45,218 bases of DNA from an uncultured Candidatus Saccharibacteria bacterium (GTDB taxonomy: Bacteria; Patescibacteriota; Minisyncoccia; Phycocordibacterales; UBA9973), in contig CAZPJV010000002.1 in the NCBI GenBank assembly GCA_964586975.1, positions 1 through 45,218 on the forward strand, written 5' to 3'. The notes under the pieces were generated by a model, which was given only the letters and a program-made list of their open reading frames with translations, made no database searches and was not told where the DNA came from. A program made the translations under genes and the position numbers. Positions 23,796 to 32,749 of this stretch are shown in pieces (the stretch's first letter is position 1; each line of letters starts with the position of its first letter).

Positions 23796-23846
23796 ACCTC
23801 ACCCCTTCGCCCCTCTCCTTAATAAGGAGAGGGGTTGGGGAGAGGT
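23796..23846. repeat. TIR-family palindromic element, intergenic single-hairpin copy
   Basis: ACCTCACCCCTTCG-CCCCTCTCCTT-AAT-AAGGAGAGGGG-TTGGGGAGAGGT. It fills the gap between the ABC gene stop and the lepA start. Confidence 0.8.
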
Positions 23847-25602
23847 CATTCCAAAAAGCCGCCGGTCTGGTGCTCCCAGAGCTCGGCATAAAAACCACTT
23901 TTTGCCAAAAGTTCCTTGTGGGTTCCCTCTTCCACTATCTTGCCCTGGTCCAGCACGATAATCCGGTCCATTTTTTGAATGGTGGATAGGCGGTGCGCGA
24001 TGACGATAGTAGTTTTGCCCTTCATTAGTTCGTTAAAGGCATCTTGGATATAATGTTCGCTAATGCTATCCAGGGAGCTGGTGGCTTCGTCCAACACCAG
24101 AATCGGCGCGTTCTTCAGCATCGCCCGGGCGATAGCCACCCTCTGTCTTTCCCCGCCGGATAGTTTTATGCCCCGCTCCCCGACCAGCGTATCGTAACCC
24201 TTCGGCAATTTTCTGATAAACTCATCGGCGTGGGCTTTTTGCGCGGCGGCAATTATCTCCGTTTCGGTGGCGTTATTTTTCGCGTAGCCGATATTTTCCT
24301 TAATGGACCGATGAAATAAAATAGATTCCTGCGGCACGTAAGAAATCTTTAACCGCAGTTCGTCTTGTTTCAGTTTAGTAATATCCTGGTCATCAATCAA
24401 AATTTTGCCCTCTTTTATGTCCGAAAAACGCAGGAGCAGTCTGGTAATCGTAGATTTGCCGGAGCCGGATGCCCGACCAATCCAACTTTTTCTCCGGATT
24501 TGATTTCAAGATTAAAATTTTTAAAAACCTTCAGCCCCTCCACATACTCAAAAGAAACACTGCTGAAGTTTATTCTGCCGGCTGAAATCCGGCATGGTTC
24601 TGGATTTGAAACATCCAAAATCTCCGGTTTTAAATCCAGCATATCGGTAATTTCTTTCATATCCGAAAACGCCTCCGCCATTCGGCTTAAAGAGCGGCCT
24701 AGGTTCCACAAAATATCAAAGAGGCCCATCATATATGTTTGGATTAAAACAAAAGTGCCCACCGACATTTTGCCCGCAGACCAAAAATAAATATTCACGA
24801 AAAGAACCACAATCTGTAAAACCGCCATCAGCAACGCTTGAAAAACATTTTGCAGATTGCCGAAATACCAGGCTCGGCGGCGCTTGGTTTCTTCATCTGC
24901 CGTAACAAGTCTGAACTTCTCTTGTTCTTTCCGCCGACCGGAGAAAATTTTTATATTCAAAATATTAGTCAGCGTATCGGCTAATTTGCCGGTCACTACA
25001 GAGTCGGCTGCCGCTTTGCGAGTATCAAAAACTACCTTTCTCCTGGTGAAAAGAATGGTTATGAGAACATAGACCACGGACCAAGCCAAAAAGATAAACC
25101 CCAGGGGTGGAATTTTTATGAACAGGACAAATAAAATGCCGGCAATATTCACCAAGGAAAACCAGATTTGGAAGCTAAGAGTATCTTGGAAAATCTCAAA
25201 TGACCGGGTGAAGCGTTTGGTTTTGGCGACAATACTGCCGGAAAAATTATTGGAGAAAAAAGAATAGGAATGCATTAGGAGTTTATCAAAGGTGTAATCA
25301 TACAAACCCTTCATGGTTCGGCTTTCAAAATAGGCATTGGCATAATCACCGACGCGGTAAAAAACCTGATGCGTTAAAATAATTAGCGCGGACCAAAGCG
25401 CCAAATTAATAATGCGGGTCAAAATTAAGTTAACCTCGGCGCCGCTGGCGATAGAATCAATGATTTCTTTATAGATATAGGGTTTAAGAATATTGTCCAG
25501 TAAAGTGGCCACGCCATAGGCAAAAAACACGAGAAAAAAAGAAAGCCAATACTTCCTCATTTGCGGCCAAACGTGTCTAAAAATTTTGCGAAACGAAATC
25601 AT
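23846..25602 (-). pseudogene. ABC exporter (fused TMD-NBD, MsbA/ABCB-like) split by a -1 frameshift at the Walker A motif
   Basis: The ORF 24415..25602 is a 6-TM ABC membrane domain ending GEKVGLVG and then going out of frame. Shifting one base at the C-run 24472-24474 restores [40 protein letters not shown], continuous with ORF 23846..24400, which carries the LSGGERQR signature, Walker [10 protein letters not shown] and the H-loop AHRL. Confidence 0.85.
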
Positions 25603-29350: not shown

Positions 29351-32300
29351 TTATAAAACTATATTGATAAGCCTGCCCGGCACATAAATAACTTTCTTGA
29401 TATTTTTGCCGGCGATATGCTTGATGGCTGTTTCGTTGGCCAGAGCTTGTATTTTAACCTTTTCTGCCGGGGCTTCCGCGCTTATCACAATTTCCGCCCG
29501 AACTTTGCCGTTAACCTGCACCGCGATTTTTATTTCCTCATCTTTTATTAAATTTCTGTCCCATTTGGGCCATATTGAAAGACTGATAGATTTTTTCTCG
29601 CCGAGCCCTTGCCAAAGTTCTTCGGCGATGTGGGGAGCAAAGGGCGAAAGAATTTGCAAGAACATTTTAAAATCTTTAATTGAAATCCACTGCGCCCGTT
29701 CCATCTCCGTTGCTAAAATCATCATGGCTGAAATTGCGGTATTGAAACGCATATTTTCTATATCTTCCGTAACTTTTTTAATGGTTTTGTGAAGAATTTT
29801 TTTTAAGGTCAAATCCACCCCTCCCTGTCCCTCCCCAAAGGAGAGGGTTATTCCCCCTCTTTTGGAGGGGGTTAGGGGGAGGTGAAGAATTTTCTGCCCT
29901 ATTTTCCACACTCGTTCCAAAAACCTTCGCGGGCCGACTATCGCCTCTTCGCTCCAGGCAATCGCCTGGTCAAAAGGGCCCATGAACATTTCATAAAGCC
30001 GCAGGGTGTCGGCGCCGTATCTTTTCACGATATCGTCGGGATTAATCACATTGCCGCGTGACTTGGACATTTTTTCACCGCCTTCAGCCAAAATCAGCCC
30101 GTGCGAGGTGCGCTTTTTATATGGCTCACTCGTGGGCACCAATTTCAAATCATACAAAAACTTGTGCCAAAAGCGCGAATAAAGCAGGTGGAGCGTAGTG
30201 TGTTCGTTGCCGCCGTTGTACCAGTCAACCCCTCCCTGGCCCTCCCCCAAGGAGAGGGAATTTTTGTTCCCCTTCCTTGGGAAGGGGTTAGGGGTAGGTC
30301 CAAGCCAGTATTTCAAATTTTTCTTTGAGGCAAACTCTTTACTATTTTGGGGGTTAGCATATCGTAAATAATACCAAGAACTCCCCGCCCAGTTAGGCAT
30401 GGTATCCGTTTCGCGTCTGGCAGGACCTTTGCATTTCGGACATTTGGTATTTACCCATTTGGAAATATTTGCCAAAGGTGACTCGCCTGTTTCTGTCGGC
30501 TGATAATTTTTAATTTTCGGCAAAAGAACCGGCAAATCTTTTTCCGGTACCGGCACCCAAGTATTTGAGCAAGGACTACCCTTGCTCACGCAGAAAACTA
30601 CCGGTATCGGCTCCCCCCAATATCTCTGCCGGGAAAAGACCCAGTCCCGCAGTTTGAAAGTTGTCTTTTCCCTGCCGCCGACAAATCTTACGATTTCCCT
30701 TTTCACTTTTTCAGAATCCATGCCGTCGAATTTGCCGGAATTGGCGAGAATTCCTTCGCCGGTATAAACCTGTTCCTGCCCCTGCAAAATATGCCAGTCG
30801 CGCAGAGAACCTTCAATGTTCATAATTCTTTCTAACTCCGGTTTGGTAACCCAGATTAATTCATGTTTTTCTTTTTCGTCCGGAGTAAGTTCTTTCTGTT
30901 CCCCATTTTTTAATTCAAAATAAAAATTGGAGAAATGCGCGAAACGATTTTCTTTCTTGGGCACGTGGTAAAACTTGCTGTGTGAGCGCGGCAGTTCTTT
31001 CAGTAACTTAAAATTCTGATAGCCGGTTTCTTCCCTGATTTCGCGTTCAACTGCTTGGAGCGGTGTTTCTCCTTCATCTACACCACCCGTTATAAATGTT
31101 ACCCAATCAACTTTTTTCCATTTCAAAACCAAATATTTGTCCTCCGAACAATGCTTTAATATCGCATGTACTGCTTCCCGTTCCACGAACGGCAAATCTT
31201 CTCTAGGATTATCAAAAAAGGTCGGCTCAATTACATTTTTAATCGGCAAACTGTATTTTTTCGCAAATTCAAAATCGCGTTCGTCATGCGCCGGCACAGC
31301 CATAATCGCGCTGGTGCCATAGTCATAAGACACATAGTTCACAACCCATACAGGAATCTCTTCGCCATTCGCAGGATTGATGGCTCGGAGGCCAGTATCT
31401 TTTCCTATTTTTTCCCCGCCTGCCATCGCCTGCGGCTTCAGGCCGTGGCGGGCAGGCTTATTTTCCTCTGATTTTACACCAAAGTCACTGCCCGCTAGTT
31501 TCTTCGCGACCTCCGGAGCAATCGCCAAATAAGTCGCTCCGAAAATCGTGTCCGGGCGAGTGGTGAAAACTTTAATGCCCAATTCAACCTCTCCCTGGCC
31601 CTCTCCCAAGGAGAGGGGGTAATCCGGAAGAGTTTCCAATTTTTTATTTATCCTCCTTATTACATCTGCTAAGTTTTCTAAAACTTCCTCATTTGAAAAT
31701 CGGAGAATGGTATAACCAAGTGTTTCCAGCCGATTGATCCTTTCGGCATCTCTTTCTCTCTGATAATTATGAACACCCCCCTCAATTTCTATAACCAAGT
31801 TTTTCGGAAGACAAAGAAAGTCCACAATAAAATGATCAATTATATGCTGTCTTCTGAAATGATATCTCTGTTTGTTCGCTTTTAGCGCTTCCCATAATTT
31901 CCTTTCAGCTTGAGTGGGGTTCTTTCTCATTTCTAATGCTTTCTCAAAAAGTTCCTTATATACTTCAGCATCAGTGGTGACATAACCCGGCAATGCCCCC
32001 CTTCCTTGGGAAGGGGCTGGGGGTAGGTCTGGGGTTAGGTTCTTTATTTTAAATTCTATCTCTGCCCCCTCGGACTTCCCTATCCAATTTCTTTGCGCAA
32101 GTTTTATGTGCGGCAAGTAGTCCACGGTATCTAAATCTTTATCTAACCTTTCCGCATATTTAGTAATCCCCAGCATCCACTGCTCTTTTTCTTTTTTTTC
32201 CACCGGCGTGCCGCAACGTTCGCAAGCGCCACCCACAACCTCTTCATTGGCCAAACCGATTTTACAGGACGGGCACCAATTAATCGGAATTTTTGCTTTG

Positions 32301-32749
32301 TAAGCCAAACCTTTTTTCAAAAATTGCAAAAATATCCACTGCGTCCACTTGTAGTATTTCGGATCAGTGGTATTTATTTCCCGCGACCAGTCAAAAGAAA
32401 TTCCCAGGGATTTTATCTGCTGGCGGAAAGTATCGCTATTTTTTTTAGTAACCACCCGAGGGTCTTGACCGGTCTTGATGGCGTAGTTTTCCGTCGGCAA
32501 ACCAAACGCGTCCCAACCGATGGGGTAAAGCACATTAAAACCTTCCATCCTTTTTTTTCTGGAAATCACATCCATCCCGATATACGGCCGCGGATGTCCC
32601 ACATGCAACCCGTCGCCGGAAGGATAAGGAAACTCAATCAAGCTGTAATATTTAGGTTGTTTTGATAGATCTTTGGCTTGAAAAACCTTCTTTTCCTCCC
32701 AAATTTTCTGCCACTTTCGTTCCAACCCCAAATGCTCATATTCTTTCAT
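29351..32749 (-). CDS. leuS: Leucine--tRNA ligase carrying five in-frame insertions (three TIR elements, one with a DUF559 domain; one hairpin element; one Nudix domain)
   Basis: HIGH (GDGLHVGHP), KMSKS (KMSKSRGN), CP1 editing motifs (TTRPDTIFGATY, GTSAIMAVPAHDERDFEFA), RDWVFSRQRYWGEPIP, and GGNEHTTLHLLYSRFW. At 1132 aa it is much longer than the roughly 860 aa of E. coli LeuRS. Confidence 0.95.
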   Translation of the reverse strand: MKEYEHLGLERKWQKIWEEKKVFQAKDLSKQPKYYSLIEFPYPSGDGLHVGHPRPYIGMDVISRKKRMEGFNVLYPIGWDAFGLPTENYAIKTGQDPRVVTKKNSDTFRQQIKSLGISFDWSREINTTDPKYYKWTQWIFLQFLKKGLAYKAKIPINWCPSCKIGLANEEVVGGACERCGTPVEKKEKEQWMLGITKYAERLDKDLDTVDYLPHIKLAQRNWIGKSEGAEIEFKIKNLTPDLPPAPSQGRGALPGYVTTDAEVYKELFEKALEMRKNPTQAERKLWEALKANKQRYHFRRQHIIDHFIVDFLCLPKNLVIEIEGGVHNYQRERDAERINRLETLGYTILRFSNEEVLENLADVIRRINKKLETLPDYPLSLGEGQGEVELGIKVFTTRPDTIFGATYLAIAPEVAKKLAGSDFGVKSEENKPARHGLKPQAMAGGEKIGKDTGLRAINPANGEEIPVWVVNYVSYDYGTSAIMAVPAHDERDFEFAKKYSLPIKNVIEPTFFDNPREDLPFVEREAVHAILKHCSEDKYLVLKWKKVDWVTFITGGVDEGETPLQAVEREIREETGYQNFKLLKELPRSHSKFYHVPKKENRFAHFSNFYFELKNGEQKELTPDEKEKHELIWVTKPELERIMNIEGSLRDWHILQGQEQVYTGEGILANSGKFDGMDSEKVKREIVRFVGGREKTTFKLRDWVFSRQRYWGEPIPVVFCVSKGSPCSNTWVPVPEKDLPVLLPKIKNYQPTETGESPLANISKWVNTKCPKCKGPARRETDTMPNWAGSSWYYLRYANPQNSKEFASKKNLKYWLGPTPNPFPRKGNKNSLSLGEGQGGVDWYNGGNEHTTLHLLYSRFWHKFLYDLKLVPTSEPYKKRTSHGLILAEGGEKMSKSRGNVINPDDIVKRYGADTLRLYEMFMGPFDQAIAWSEEAIVGPRRFLERVWKIGQKILHLPLTPSKRGGITLSFGEGQGGVDLTLKKILHKTIKKVTEDIENMRFNTAISAMMILATEMERAQWISIKDFKMFLQILSPFAPHIAEELWQGLGEKKSISLSIWPKWDRNLIKDEEIKIAVQVNGKVRAEIVISAEAPAEKVKIQALANETAIKHIAGKNIKKVIYVPGRLINIVL
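29816..29884. repeat. TIR-family palindromic element (cargo-less, 69 bp), in frame in leuS
   Basis: CACCCCTCCCTGTCCCTCCCCAAAGGAGAGGG-TTATT-CCCCCTCTTTTGGAGGGGGTTAGGGGGAGGTG. It encodes LTPSKRGGITLSFGEGQGGV. Confidence 0.85.
30227..30299. repeat. TIR-family palindromic element (cargo-less), in frame in leuS
   Basis: AACCCCTCCCTGGCCCTCCCCCAAGGAGAGGG-AATTTTTGTT-CCCCTTCCTTGGGAAGGGGTTAGGGGTAGGT. It encodes PTPNPFPRKGNKNSLSLGEGQGG immediately before VDWYNGGNEH. Confidence 0.85.
30800..31190 (-). other. Nudix hydrolase domain embedded in LeuRS
   Basis: GGVDEGETPLQAVEREIREETGY (31019-31087) fits the Nudix box GX5EX7REUXEEXGU at every position. Flanking beta-strand-like segments (AVHAILKH..YLVLKW; FYFEL; LIWVT) complete a domain of about 130 aa that E. 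coli LeuRS lacks at this point. Confidence 0.85.
31414..31457. repeat. CTGCCCGCC hairpin element, in frame in leuS CP1
   Basis: On the minus strand it reads GCCTGCCCGCC-ACGGCCTGAAGCCGCAGGCGAT-GGCAGGCGGGG and encodes KPARHGLKPQAMAGGEK. The murJ copy encodes a similar MPARQLAGGDGEK. Confidence 0.6.
31586..32040. mobile_element. TIR-bounded element carrying a DUF559 (Vsr-like) endonuclease domain, in frame in leuS
   Basis: The arm 31586-31620 and the reverse complement of 31996-32028 match at 25 of 33 positions. The interior encodes PTQAERKLWEALK...FRRQHIIDHFIVDFLCLPKNLVIEIEGGVH...RDAERINRLETLGYTILRFSNEEV, which is the DUF559 hallmark pattern. Boundaries are approximate. Confidence 0.8.

Follow-up and report, generated by a model that had tools for sequence, protein, structure and literature searches.

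The leucyl-tRNA synthetase (LeuRS) encoded in the DNA studied here contains a complete Nudix domain nested within its CP1 editing domain, and the metal-binding glutamates of the Nudix domain are under purifying selection. The window, by which we mean the whole stretch analysed, is a single metagenomic contig, CAZPJV010000002.1, of 45218 bp, and its LeuRS is protein P0047. We lean modestly toward the reading that the insert is an independently folding, competent Nudix enzyme of the Patescibacteria (CPR), lodged in a CP1 loop and engaged in general nucleotide clean-up, with LeuRS as its carrier and leucine proofreading outside its remit. Few enzymes are as conserved as the aminoacyl-tRNA synthetases, and in bacteria these seldom gain additional catalytic domains. 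In the present case an essential synthetase is joined to an apparently active Nudix in much of the Patescibacteria, organisms with minimal genomes that are largely uncultured.

Is the host a normal leuS gene? The 1132-residue product of the ORF at 29351..32749 (minus strand) scores 910.6 bits against TIGR00396, the bacterial LeuRS equivalog HMM (cut-off 548.4), and Thermus thermophilus (Tt) LeuRS (1H3N) matches it with 658 bits. The class I motifs HVGH (aa 49-52) and KMSKS (aa 893-897) are present, and the CP1 editing domain is matched by PF13603 with E=1.4e-51. The N-terminal part of CP1 (aa 389-508; 31226..31585, minus strand), delimited by PF13603 and by alignment to Tt LeuRS 240-364, holds the Thr-rich TTRPDT motif (aa 396-401) and the AVPAHDERD Asp; GTSAIMAVPAHDERD spans aa 478-492, and the universally conserved CP1 Asp, D489, aligns with Tt D344. 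The C-terminal part (aa 658-700; 30650..30778, minus strand) restarts at ...QVYTGEGILANSGKFDG, which corresponds to Tt LeuRS from residue 373, and ends at the KLRDW linker. By motif search and alignment all of the synthetic and editing motifs are intact, as the initial annotation had said of the surrounding CP1 motifs, and in a full-length AF2 model CP1 is confidently modelled on either side of the insert, with pLDDT of at least 90 in the junction blocks. When the LeuRS enzymes of T. thermophilus (1H3N/2BYT) and E. coli (4AQ7) are compared with the window protein, the alignment runs through the core, CP1, the Zn module and the anticodon-binding and C-terminal domains, and the editing motifs are conserved; what the window protein has in addition is the Nudix module, a DUF559 domain and two loops made by palindromic elements. 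In the 1H3N alignment nothing corresponds to the leucine-specific domain (Tt 580-637), which is also missing from Mycoplasma mobile LeuRS (PMC3643597). The gene order DUF5671-leuS, with YchF close by, is conserved.

The Nudix module occupies aa 509-657 (30779..31225, minus strand), its limits being set by alignment to 1H3N and to Nudix-less relatives. Query residues 389-509 correspond to Tt 240-364 and residues 658-889 to Tt 373-580, and the insert of about 149 aa stands in place of Tt residues 365-372, an 8-residue loop within CP1. The initial annotation located the domain correctly but underestimated its size, giving it about 130 aa at 30800-31190; the module includes the family's N-terminal 'EPxF...PFVERE' extension. 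An HMM search, suggested earlier as a check, returns PF00293 (NUDIX) as the sole Pfam match within aa 509-657, at aa 547-639 (30833..31111, minus strand; E=1.2e-14, 54.9 bits against a cut-off of 21.1). The Nudix box, GGVDEGETPLQAVEREIREETGY (aa 555-577; 31019..31087, minus strand), agrees with GX5EX7REUXEEXGU at each constrained position, so that the perfect box first reported there is exact. Its metal-binding glutamates are E570, E573 and E574, which together with G576 are conserved at 90% or more in a 104-sequence LeuRS alignment. Of the 218 embedded copies at site B, 211 (97%) retain E16, E19 and E20 of the box, as do all 46 free-standing copies. Modelled alone by AF2, the module reaches a pLDDT of 92.9 and a pTM of 0.87 (pLDDT 90-97 inside the full-length model), and it adopts an alpha/beta/alpha sandwich with the box as loop-helix-loop. 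The box helix, on whose formation the original claim was staked, is helix 55-67 of the module and bears the box glutamates. The Pfam match, the AF2 model and the 1H3N alignment agree that the domain proposed in the LeuRS editing region is real and complete. Its conserved catalytic residues imply Nudix activity, and on this sequence evidence the embedded domain is apparently an active pyrophosphatase.

The architecture is far from private to the window. PF00293 is present in 108 of the 120 top LeuRS relatives, and a query made of the Nudix with both flanks matches 194 clusters (50% identity) at E<=1e-30. Hundreds of independent assemblies (NCBI, JGI, ENA, Logan) show the fusion in frame at this very site, and GenBank entries since 2015, for example KKQ21214.1, carry it annotated merely as LeuRS. 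P0047 is itself known from one contig of 45218 bp, and one might think of an assembly chimera or a mis-join in metagenomic data; the independent assemblies, and the many related genomes found when orthologues were surveyed as had been recommended, refute this, and with the conserved DUF5671-leuS synteny and nearby YchF they leave it next to no likelihood. A chance match or artefact is likewise ruled out: the E-value with Pfam is low, the fold is modelled confidently and the assemblies are independent. Literature searches found no paper describing a LeuRS-Nudix fusion, in keeping with the earlier remark that no characterised example was known.

A Nudix-only scan of GTDB species genomes (tblastn) gave at least 478 matching stretches. 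The best 80 of these comprise 72 that are part of a LeuRS and 8 that are separate genes of about 160 aa, with no other host protein among them; whenever the family is fused, within these best 80 stretches, the host is LeuRS. The subfamily has been found in the Patescibacteria alone. The free-standing homologues (about 155-165 aa; P0004, P0010 and P0013 are examples) are 50-57% identical to the insert from end to end, N-terminal EPxF...VERE extension included, and carry the JGI label '8-oxo-dGTP pyrophosphatase MutT (NUDIX family)'. They belong to the same subfamily as the insert but are stand-alone genes, none of them characterised, and their box positions 7 and 15 are mostly Q/Ala, whereas the window copy has the canonical E/R. 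Their neighbourhoods are varied and of housekeeping character, with no linkage to leuS. In an NJ tree of 296 domains the main free-standing clade falls within the diversity of embedded copies, which, as the tree has no support values, is a hint only. The viral contigs of IMG/VR yielded no match to the family; a search for a defence link with PADLOC gave only a weak generic Nudix match of 23 bits, and PHROGs gave generic Nudix matches only.

Is the insert a settled domain fusion, as was initially supposed? Some LeuRS proteins have two or three Nudix copies, spread over three or more sites, and the up to three divergent copies within one protein are 28-45% identical to one another. Two relatives, P0090 and P0072, show clean secondary loss; because such loss is possible and observed, retention of the Nudix elsewhere implies selection. 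Sister LeuRS proteins hold other inserts, namely alpha/beta-hydrolase, Ham1, HAD and nucleotidyltransferase-like domains, and the unrelated hydrolase domains of relatives sit at the same LeuRS sites as the Nudix. Mean identity to the window sequence is 49% for the Nudix versus 76% for the core. The solid evidence of exchange is a DNA-level pair, L087 and L088, contigs from different samples that are about 100% identical over more than 3 kb save for a tract of about 550 bp containing the Nudix, the left breakpoint of which is razor-sharp. This tract has been replaced via recombination with another leuS allele. The family-invariant Nudix residues are identical in both alleles, so that the substrate class is probably unchanged. 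Three LeuRS pairs have cores that are 95-98% identical and Nudix domains only 34-38% identical, though the database was clustered at 90% identity and is biased toward pairs of just this kind. Nudix identity and core identity are uncorrelated (r=0.01); since the sequence set is star-like, with core versus CP1 identity giving only r=0.16, and given the clustering bias, we have downgraded this correlation as proof of shuffling. Through homologous recombination in the conserved LeuRS flanks, leuS alleles trade Nudix versions with one another. With several sites, one to three copies, secondary loss and recombinational replacement between otherwise identical leuS genes, "settled" is the wrong word.

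What might the embedded enzyme hydrolyze? A Foldseek search of the module against the PDB gave 403 matches at E<=0.001, of which the best 50 are all Nudix enzymes with probability 1.0. NudI, the Aquifex Ap4A hydrolase, Rv2985, RppH and CT771 match with that probability, ApnA hydrolases take ranks 2 and 5, and Ndx1 is matched as well. By sequence the top PDB match is lupin Ap4A hydrolase (E=1.3e-4 with the single sequence, 1.5e-5 with a profile), the profile-to-PDB alignments spanning only box positions 60-94, and sequence similarity to characterised members of the Ap4A hydrolase / RppH (NudH) subfamily does not extend beyond the box. The insert falls under all NCBIfam equivalog cut-offs; the best match is RppH, and the RNA pyrophosphohydrolase equivalogs NF001936 and NF001938 score 32.4 bits (cut-off 118) and 29.4 bits (cut-off 116). 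The PDB sequence and profile, Foldseek and NCBIfam searches gave only generic or box-limited similarity and support no assignment to a substrate, be it Ap4A, an adenylate or an RNA end. Lupin 1F3Y, Aquifex aq_158 (3I7U), Klebsiella pneumoniae NudI (6DT3), Rv2985 (9CXX) and E. coli RppH (4S2X) share with the insert a canonical box and a fold of the alpha/beta/alpha type that spans about 150 aa. The structural matches to this group of ApnA hydrolases, RppH (NudH) and NTP pyrophosphatases have Foldseek TM values of 0.6-0.7 at 18-23% identity. The insert family differs in having invariant residues of its own (R16, W36, W41, F85, K90, N93, R94, H121 and W125), and whereas the enzymes of the group are free, the window Nudix is nested in another enzyme.

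In the scenario we favour, a whole Nudix pyrophosphohydrolase would have been inserted in frame into a CP1 surface loop, giving a bifunctional LeuRS. The task of the Nudix would be general nucleotide clean-up or turnover, with dinucleoside polyphosphates such as Ap4A, non-canonical NTPs or RNA 5' ends as likely substrates, and it would take no part in leucine proofreading. LeuRS may be a suitable carrier: the CP1 hinge and loop sites appear to tolerate insertions, and the gene is presumably essential and constitutively expressed, so that carriage in LeuRS would guarantee the expression of small house-cleaning enzymes in a minimal genome. Ham1/ITPase, HAD and alpha/beta-hydrolase domains seem to be carried likewise by sister LeuRS proteins, and such inserts speak against a task confined to leucine proofreading. 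If the Nudix is merely carried, streamlined genomes would have a new route for expressing house-cleaning enzymes, nested in the permissive loops of an essential protein. Some of the observations sit uneasily with a passive carrier. The exclusive association with LeuRS, the repeated insertion at different sites and the two or three divergent copies exceed what it predicts, and hint at a specific functional link. Cassette replacement in otherwise identical genes could reflect diversifying selection, which would be unexpected for a housekeeping enzyme.

One such link would be to the chemistry of LeuRS itself, the Nudix clearing Ap4A or other ApnA formed by attack of ATP on enzyme-bound Leu-AMP, or clearing non-cognate adenylates, as clean-up in cis or as pre-transfer editing. 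We consider this rather unlikely. It would explain why, among the best 80 stretches, the family is fused to LeuRS alone, and this more than once and at several sites; the model shows rigid junctions (pLDDT at least 90), Ap4A and ApnA hydrolases, together with CT771 and Ndx1, figure among the sequence and structural matches, and a Tyr, a marker of ApnA hydrolases, is located 17 residues past the box. The similarity to Ap4A hydrolases is however limited to the box, at 18-23% identity, free-standing orthologues exist that are unlinked to leuS, and in relatives the same LeuRS sites hold hydrolase domains unrelated to the Nudix. Moreover the aminoacyl-adenylate bond is an acyl-phosphate; adenylates have no diphosphate bond, the target of Nudix enzymes, and their hydrolysis would be chemically atypical for the family. 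LeuRS is not known to be among the strongest producers of Ap4A. The logic of the proposal is the same as for eukaryotic LysRS and NUDT2, where a synthetase side-product is paired with a Nudix hydrolase; the Ap4A made by LysRS is degraded by NUDT2 (reviews: PMC7705103, PMC10148737). LysRS and NUDT2 are separate proteins whose pairing is experimentally established, whereas in LeuRS-Nudix the two partners are physically fused. If the Nudix does act on an Ap4A-like by-product of the synthetase, the fusion would be a natural physical coupling of synthetase side-chemistry to its disposal.

The exchange of Nudix versions invites another thought: that the domain is a conflict or diversification module, a cassette under balancing or diversifying selection in an arms race, with alleles swapped between strains. 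It might free tRNALeu or LeuRS of a nucleotide-derived modification, for example ADP-ribose or a nucleotidyl group, or else evade or neutralise an inhibitor. The three pairs, the L087/L088 tract, the lack of correlation between Nudix and core identity and the stacking of divergent copies in one protein are consistent with such a role, and Nudix domains are known parts of NAD/ADP-ribose conflict systems (PMC7159879). Still, we regard it as unlikely: both alleles keep the same invariant residues, the pairs and the correlation carry the clustering and star-like sampling effects noted above, the family has no match in viral contigs, the PADLOC match is weak and generic, and a fast-evolving domain between conserved recombination anchors could give the same pattern neutrally. 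A fuller version, to which we give a still smaller chance, would see a polymorphic exchanged cassette under balancing or diversifying selection acting as a conflict or repair module in the tRNALeu proofreading domain; it might, for one, remove the ADP-ribose, nucleotidyl groups or NpnN caps with which toxins of phages or competitors modify tRNALeu or LeuRS, and strains would swap alleles or stack two or three paralogous copies to keep pace. The finding of Nudix versions about 35% identical in near-identical strains makes selection on the module a testable question. Finally, the Nudix might be selfish or neutral inserted DNA, or an appendage that binds RNA or has a structural role but does not catalyse, persisting only because an essential gene is unlikely to lose it by exact excision. 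The same gene has a parasitic-looking DUF559 insert and two MITE-like in-frame palindromes, several insertion sites are in use, and the Nudix evolves faster than the core. This reading we find very improbable, as the catalytic glutamates persist in 97% of embedded copies despite very deep divergence, the fold is confidently predicted, the Nudix has neither terminal repeats nor an endonuclease, and the clean losses in P0090 and P0072 imply that retention is selected.

Other housekeeping enzymes share a polypeptide with a second catalytic domain. The bifunctional NMNAT-Nudix protein slr0787 of Synechocystis is one, and it resembles LeuRS-Nudix in that the second catalytic domain is fused to a housekeeping enzyme; another is a bacterial IleRS that gained a GNAT N-acetyltransferase domain (NCBIfam NF040702). 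LeuRS-Nudix differs from both in that its Nudix is nested in CP1, a domain that already interrupts the Rossmann fold, and in its one to three copies, several sites and strain polymorphism.

The Nudix flanks have no meaningful repeats, only A/T-rich chance matches of 14-15 nt, which bears out the initial view that its borders, unlike those of the DUF559 insert, lack inverted repeats. A mobile element with terminal repeats was rejected on this ground, as was an intein or homing element, there being no Hint domain, endonuclease or terminal repeats with aa 509-657. The DUF559 (Vsr-like endonuclease) insert, 140 aa upstream, is separate from and unrelated to the Nudix module. It lies at 31586..32041 (minus strand; PF04480 at aa 268-371, E=1.3e-30) between the halves of a GC-rich palindromic element, and its inverted arms, as earlier described, were found: 33 nt each, at 31587-31619 and 31996-32028. 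Its junctions have pLDDT below 50 in the full-length AF2 model. The palindromic element was not found in 101 related loci; it occurs three times in the window, always within leuS and never adjoining the Nudix. Both solo copies are translated in frame on the minus strand, one at 30212..30299 as …SLSLGEGQGGV…, missing from the relatives' consensus (pLDDT below 50 at aa 818-837), and the other at 29801..29883 as …TLSFGEGQGGV… (pLDDT below 50 at aa 959-976).

The leuS ORF (29351-32749, minus strand, 1132 aa) encodes a bacterial LeuRS (TIGR00396 in NCBIfam, 910.6 bits, cut-off 548.4), and a Pfam scan finds in it the LeuRS editing domain PF13603, the class I core, the anticodon-binding domain and DUF559. 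The same scan places a NUDIX domain, PF00293, at aa 547-639 (E=1.2e-14), scoring 54.9 bits where the gathering cut-off is 21.1. The initial annotation had put a perfect Nudix box at 31019-31087, and it lies exactly there: on the minus strand, GGVDEGETPLQAVEREIREETGY (aa 555-577) satisfies every constrained position of the motif. When aligned to the T. thermophilus (Tt) structure 1H3N, residues 389-509 match Tt 240-364 and residues 658-889 match Tt 373-580, so that some 149 residues stand in place of an 8-residue loop of CP1, the editing domain. The insert is thus present as proposed, though its limits, aa 509-657 (30779-31225, minus strand), are slightly wider than those first drawn. HVGH and KMSKS are intact, as are the CP1 motifs already recognized in the initial annotation, TTRPDT and AVPAHDERD, with D489 corresponding to Tt D344; likewise, a repeat search of the window DNA found no significant repeats at the insert borders. 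The leucine-specific domain, Tt 580-637, is replaced by a short EGGE just before KMSKS (aa 889-897, 30059-30085), much as the LeuRS of Mycoplasma mobile is described (PMC3643597) with a GKDG tetrapeptide where that domain would be.

What sort of Nudix protein is the insert? Modelled by AlphaFold2 with 44 homologues (pLDDT 92.9, pTM 0.87), it is predicted to be a complete, well-folded Nudix domain, a beta-sheet and helix arrangement in which the box lies on a helix, residues 55-67 of the model. In the full-length LeuRS model the mean pLDDT is 81.6, and the insert and both its junctions reach 90-97. Among the matches listed by Foldseek against the PDB there are only Nudix enzymes, including NudI, Aquifex Ap4A hydrolase, YfaO, Rv2985, MutT1, RppH, CT771 and Ndx1 (probability 1.0, TM about 0.6-0.7). 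The insert shares the fold of these enzymes, yet identity is just 18-23%, and in PDB sequence and profile searches, where the top match is lupin Ap4A hydrolase, similarity is restricted to the box. The best NCBIfam Nudix match, RppH, scores 32 bits, below its cut-off of 118. On these comparisons the insert is a putative Nudix hydrolase outside every characterised subfamily, and homology gives no substrate.

The fusion is widespread. With the whole protein as query, PF00293 is present in 108 of the 120 best LeuRS relatives (Paceibacterota, Nomurabacteria and the Parcubacteria group), a ranking biased to Nudix-bearing LeuRS because the query itself includes the domain. A query of Nudix plus both flanks retrieved 194 proteins at E<=1e-30 (50%-identity clusters), and most of the best 150 span it in one stretch. 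A Nudix-only pattern scan of GTDB species genomes gave at least 478 matching stretches, from taxa that include Nomura-, Moran-, Kaiser-, Colwell-, Taylor-, Sung-, Azam-, Adler-, Berkel- and Staskawicz-bacteria. Of its 80 top-ranking loci, 72 fall within LeuRS ORFs and the other 8 are free-standing; no other protein serves as host. Used alone as query, the insert retrieves chiefly free-standing Nudix proteins 155-165 aa long, plus a few LeuRS fragments. These free-standing proteins are 50-57% identical to the whole insert, N-terminal "EPxF...PFVERE" extension included, and lie in varied housekeeping contexts that bear no relation to leuS. Most of them (P0002-P0042) carry Gln, not Glu, at box position 7; at position 15 they have Ala, the Arg lying instead at 14. 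Most LeuRS copies at site B, the CP1-loop position of the window's insert, keep the canonical E7 and R15. A 295-aa "CP1+Nudix protein", P0001, is probably no stand-alone editing-Nudix protein but a fragment from an assembly rich in frameshifts, since AlaRS and LeuRS are each split into several short called genes on that contig (L001, ENA ERZ1286166 contig_4223).

Conservation was scored over 305 extracted Nudix domains. E16, E19 and E20 of the box are all kept in 211 of 218 site-B copies, 46 of 46 free-standing copies and 13 of 17 copies at site A, the second LeuRS insertion site, and G1, G22 and Y/F23 are nearly invariant. A 104-sequence LeuRS alignment shows conservation of 90% or more at E570, E573 and E574. 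Family-specific invariant residues of the insert (R16, W36, W41, F85, K90, N93, R94, H121, W125) also persist. Identity to the window averages 49% in Nudix, 66% in CP1 and 76% in the core, so the Nudix domain evolves faster than its host. That the catalytic residues are selectively kept in so fast-evolving a domain argues for an active enzyme.

The initial annotation took the fusion to be settled, and here we disagree: it is dynamic. Some LeuRS carry two or three Nudix domains, at site B, singly or in tandem at a second site that precedes the CP1 entry strand, or rarely within CP1, and identity between the copies of a single protein is just 28-45%. A 1461-aa LeuRS ORF on L067 (JBDHUK010000002.1, labelled Saccharimonadales) appears to have three, along with a partial CP1 duplication, seen as a second "...AVPAHNNQDYEFARRHKLP..." segment. 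The close relatives P0090 and P0072 are without Nudix; in P0090 the Nudix N-terminal linker "IEPVFVEGPKEGMP" is joined straight onto "YSGEGII", and its retention points to a secondary, clean loss of the domain. At the same CP1 site P0133 carries an unrelated insert. Alleles are also replaced. In three LeuRS pairs the cores are 95-98% identical and the Nudix domains 34-38%, a pair count that is no measure of frequency, as the database was clustered at 90% and so enriched for such pairs. The contigs of one pair, P0091 and P0122, come from different samples, and their DNA matches at about 100% over more than 2 kb on the upstream side, the neighboring DUF5671 gene included, and over more than 1.2 kb downstream. 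Between these flanks, identity drops to 42-72% over about 550 bp, with a razor-sharp left breakpoint directly past the AKKYNL codons and a SNP-rich, mosaic right side in conserved leuS sequence. Both alleles have the family invariant residues. The tract is a gene conversion from another leuS allele with a different Nudix type. Core and Nudix identities are uncorrelated (r about 0.01), a result weakened by the star-like sequence set, in which core and CP1 identities give only r=0.16.

What does LeuRS gain? We lean slightly to the view that an active Nudix domain makes LeuRS bifunctional, the reaction being a general clean-up of nucleotide derivatives, of the ApnA, NTP or RNA-5'-end class. LeuRS would be a permissive, constitutively expressed carrier, and the module would be exchanged through conserved flanks by homologous recombination. 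Coupling to LeuRS chemistry, the initial annotation's proposal that the tethered domain clears Ap4A or adenylates in cis, would fit the LeuRS-exclusive association of the fused domain and its multiple independent insertions. We consider it unlikely however, given the free-standing orthologues, the unrelated hydrolases inserted in sister LeuRS, and the targets themselves: aminoacyl-adenylate hydrolysis is atypical Nudix chemistry. The sister inserts, at the CP1 hinge or Zn/CP2 region, include alpha/beta (serine) hydrolases, a Ham1/ITPase (P0153), a HAD phosphatase (L057), an aminoglycoside-nucleotidyltransferase-like segment (P0053) and two or more unassigned 140-aa domains, in proteins of up to about 1550 aa (also P0060, P0082, P0108, P0144, P0187, P0200; L043, L042, L036, L022).

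Might the module serve conflict or diversification? Allelic replacement and the stacking of divergent copies could be so read, but searches for a phage or defence link found none, and we regard such a role as quite improbable. A neutral or selfish, non-catalytic insert is hard to square with conserved catalytic residues and clean losses, and seems very improbable. An assembly artefact is excluded. The Nudix and LeuRS families, and aminoacyl-tRNA synthetases with extra domains, are already known. The LeuRS-Nudix proteins have been in GenBank since 2015, annotated as LeuRS only (e.g. KKQ21214.1); the literature searched held no description of the fusion, in keeping with the initial annotation. 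A Nudix domain nested in the LeuRS editing domain thus appears to be undescribed so far, and the same holds for its presence across hundreds of species, its multiple copies and the replacement of the cassette at strain level.

The window leuS also harbors a GC-rich palindromic element of about 85 nt, two small hairpins within outer inverted repeats. All three copies in the window are in leuS and in frame (peptides ...L/FGEGQGG/EV...). The two solo copies (29801-29883 and 30212-30299) are translated and modelled as disordered loops, pLDDT below 50 in the full-length model; the third is split (arms 31571-31619 and 31993-32028), with the DUF559 endonuclease ORF exactly between its halves. The split copy resembles an autonomous element and the solo copies MITE-like derivatives, an arrangement that recalls the palindromic elements of Rickettsia; none of the 101 related loci contains the core motif. 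The neighbors of leuS are housekeeping genes (LepA, MurJ, an ABC exporter, DUF5671, YchF), and the DUF5671-leuS order with YchF nearby is syntenic in relatives. The exporter, on the minus strand, appears split into a 395-aa ABC_membrane ORF (24415-25602) and, downstream, a 184-aa ORF (23846-24400) that matches only ABC_tran profile positions 44-137, without the Walker A end; a frameshift, a pseudogene or a wrongly placed start could account for this.
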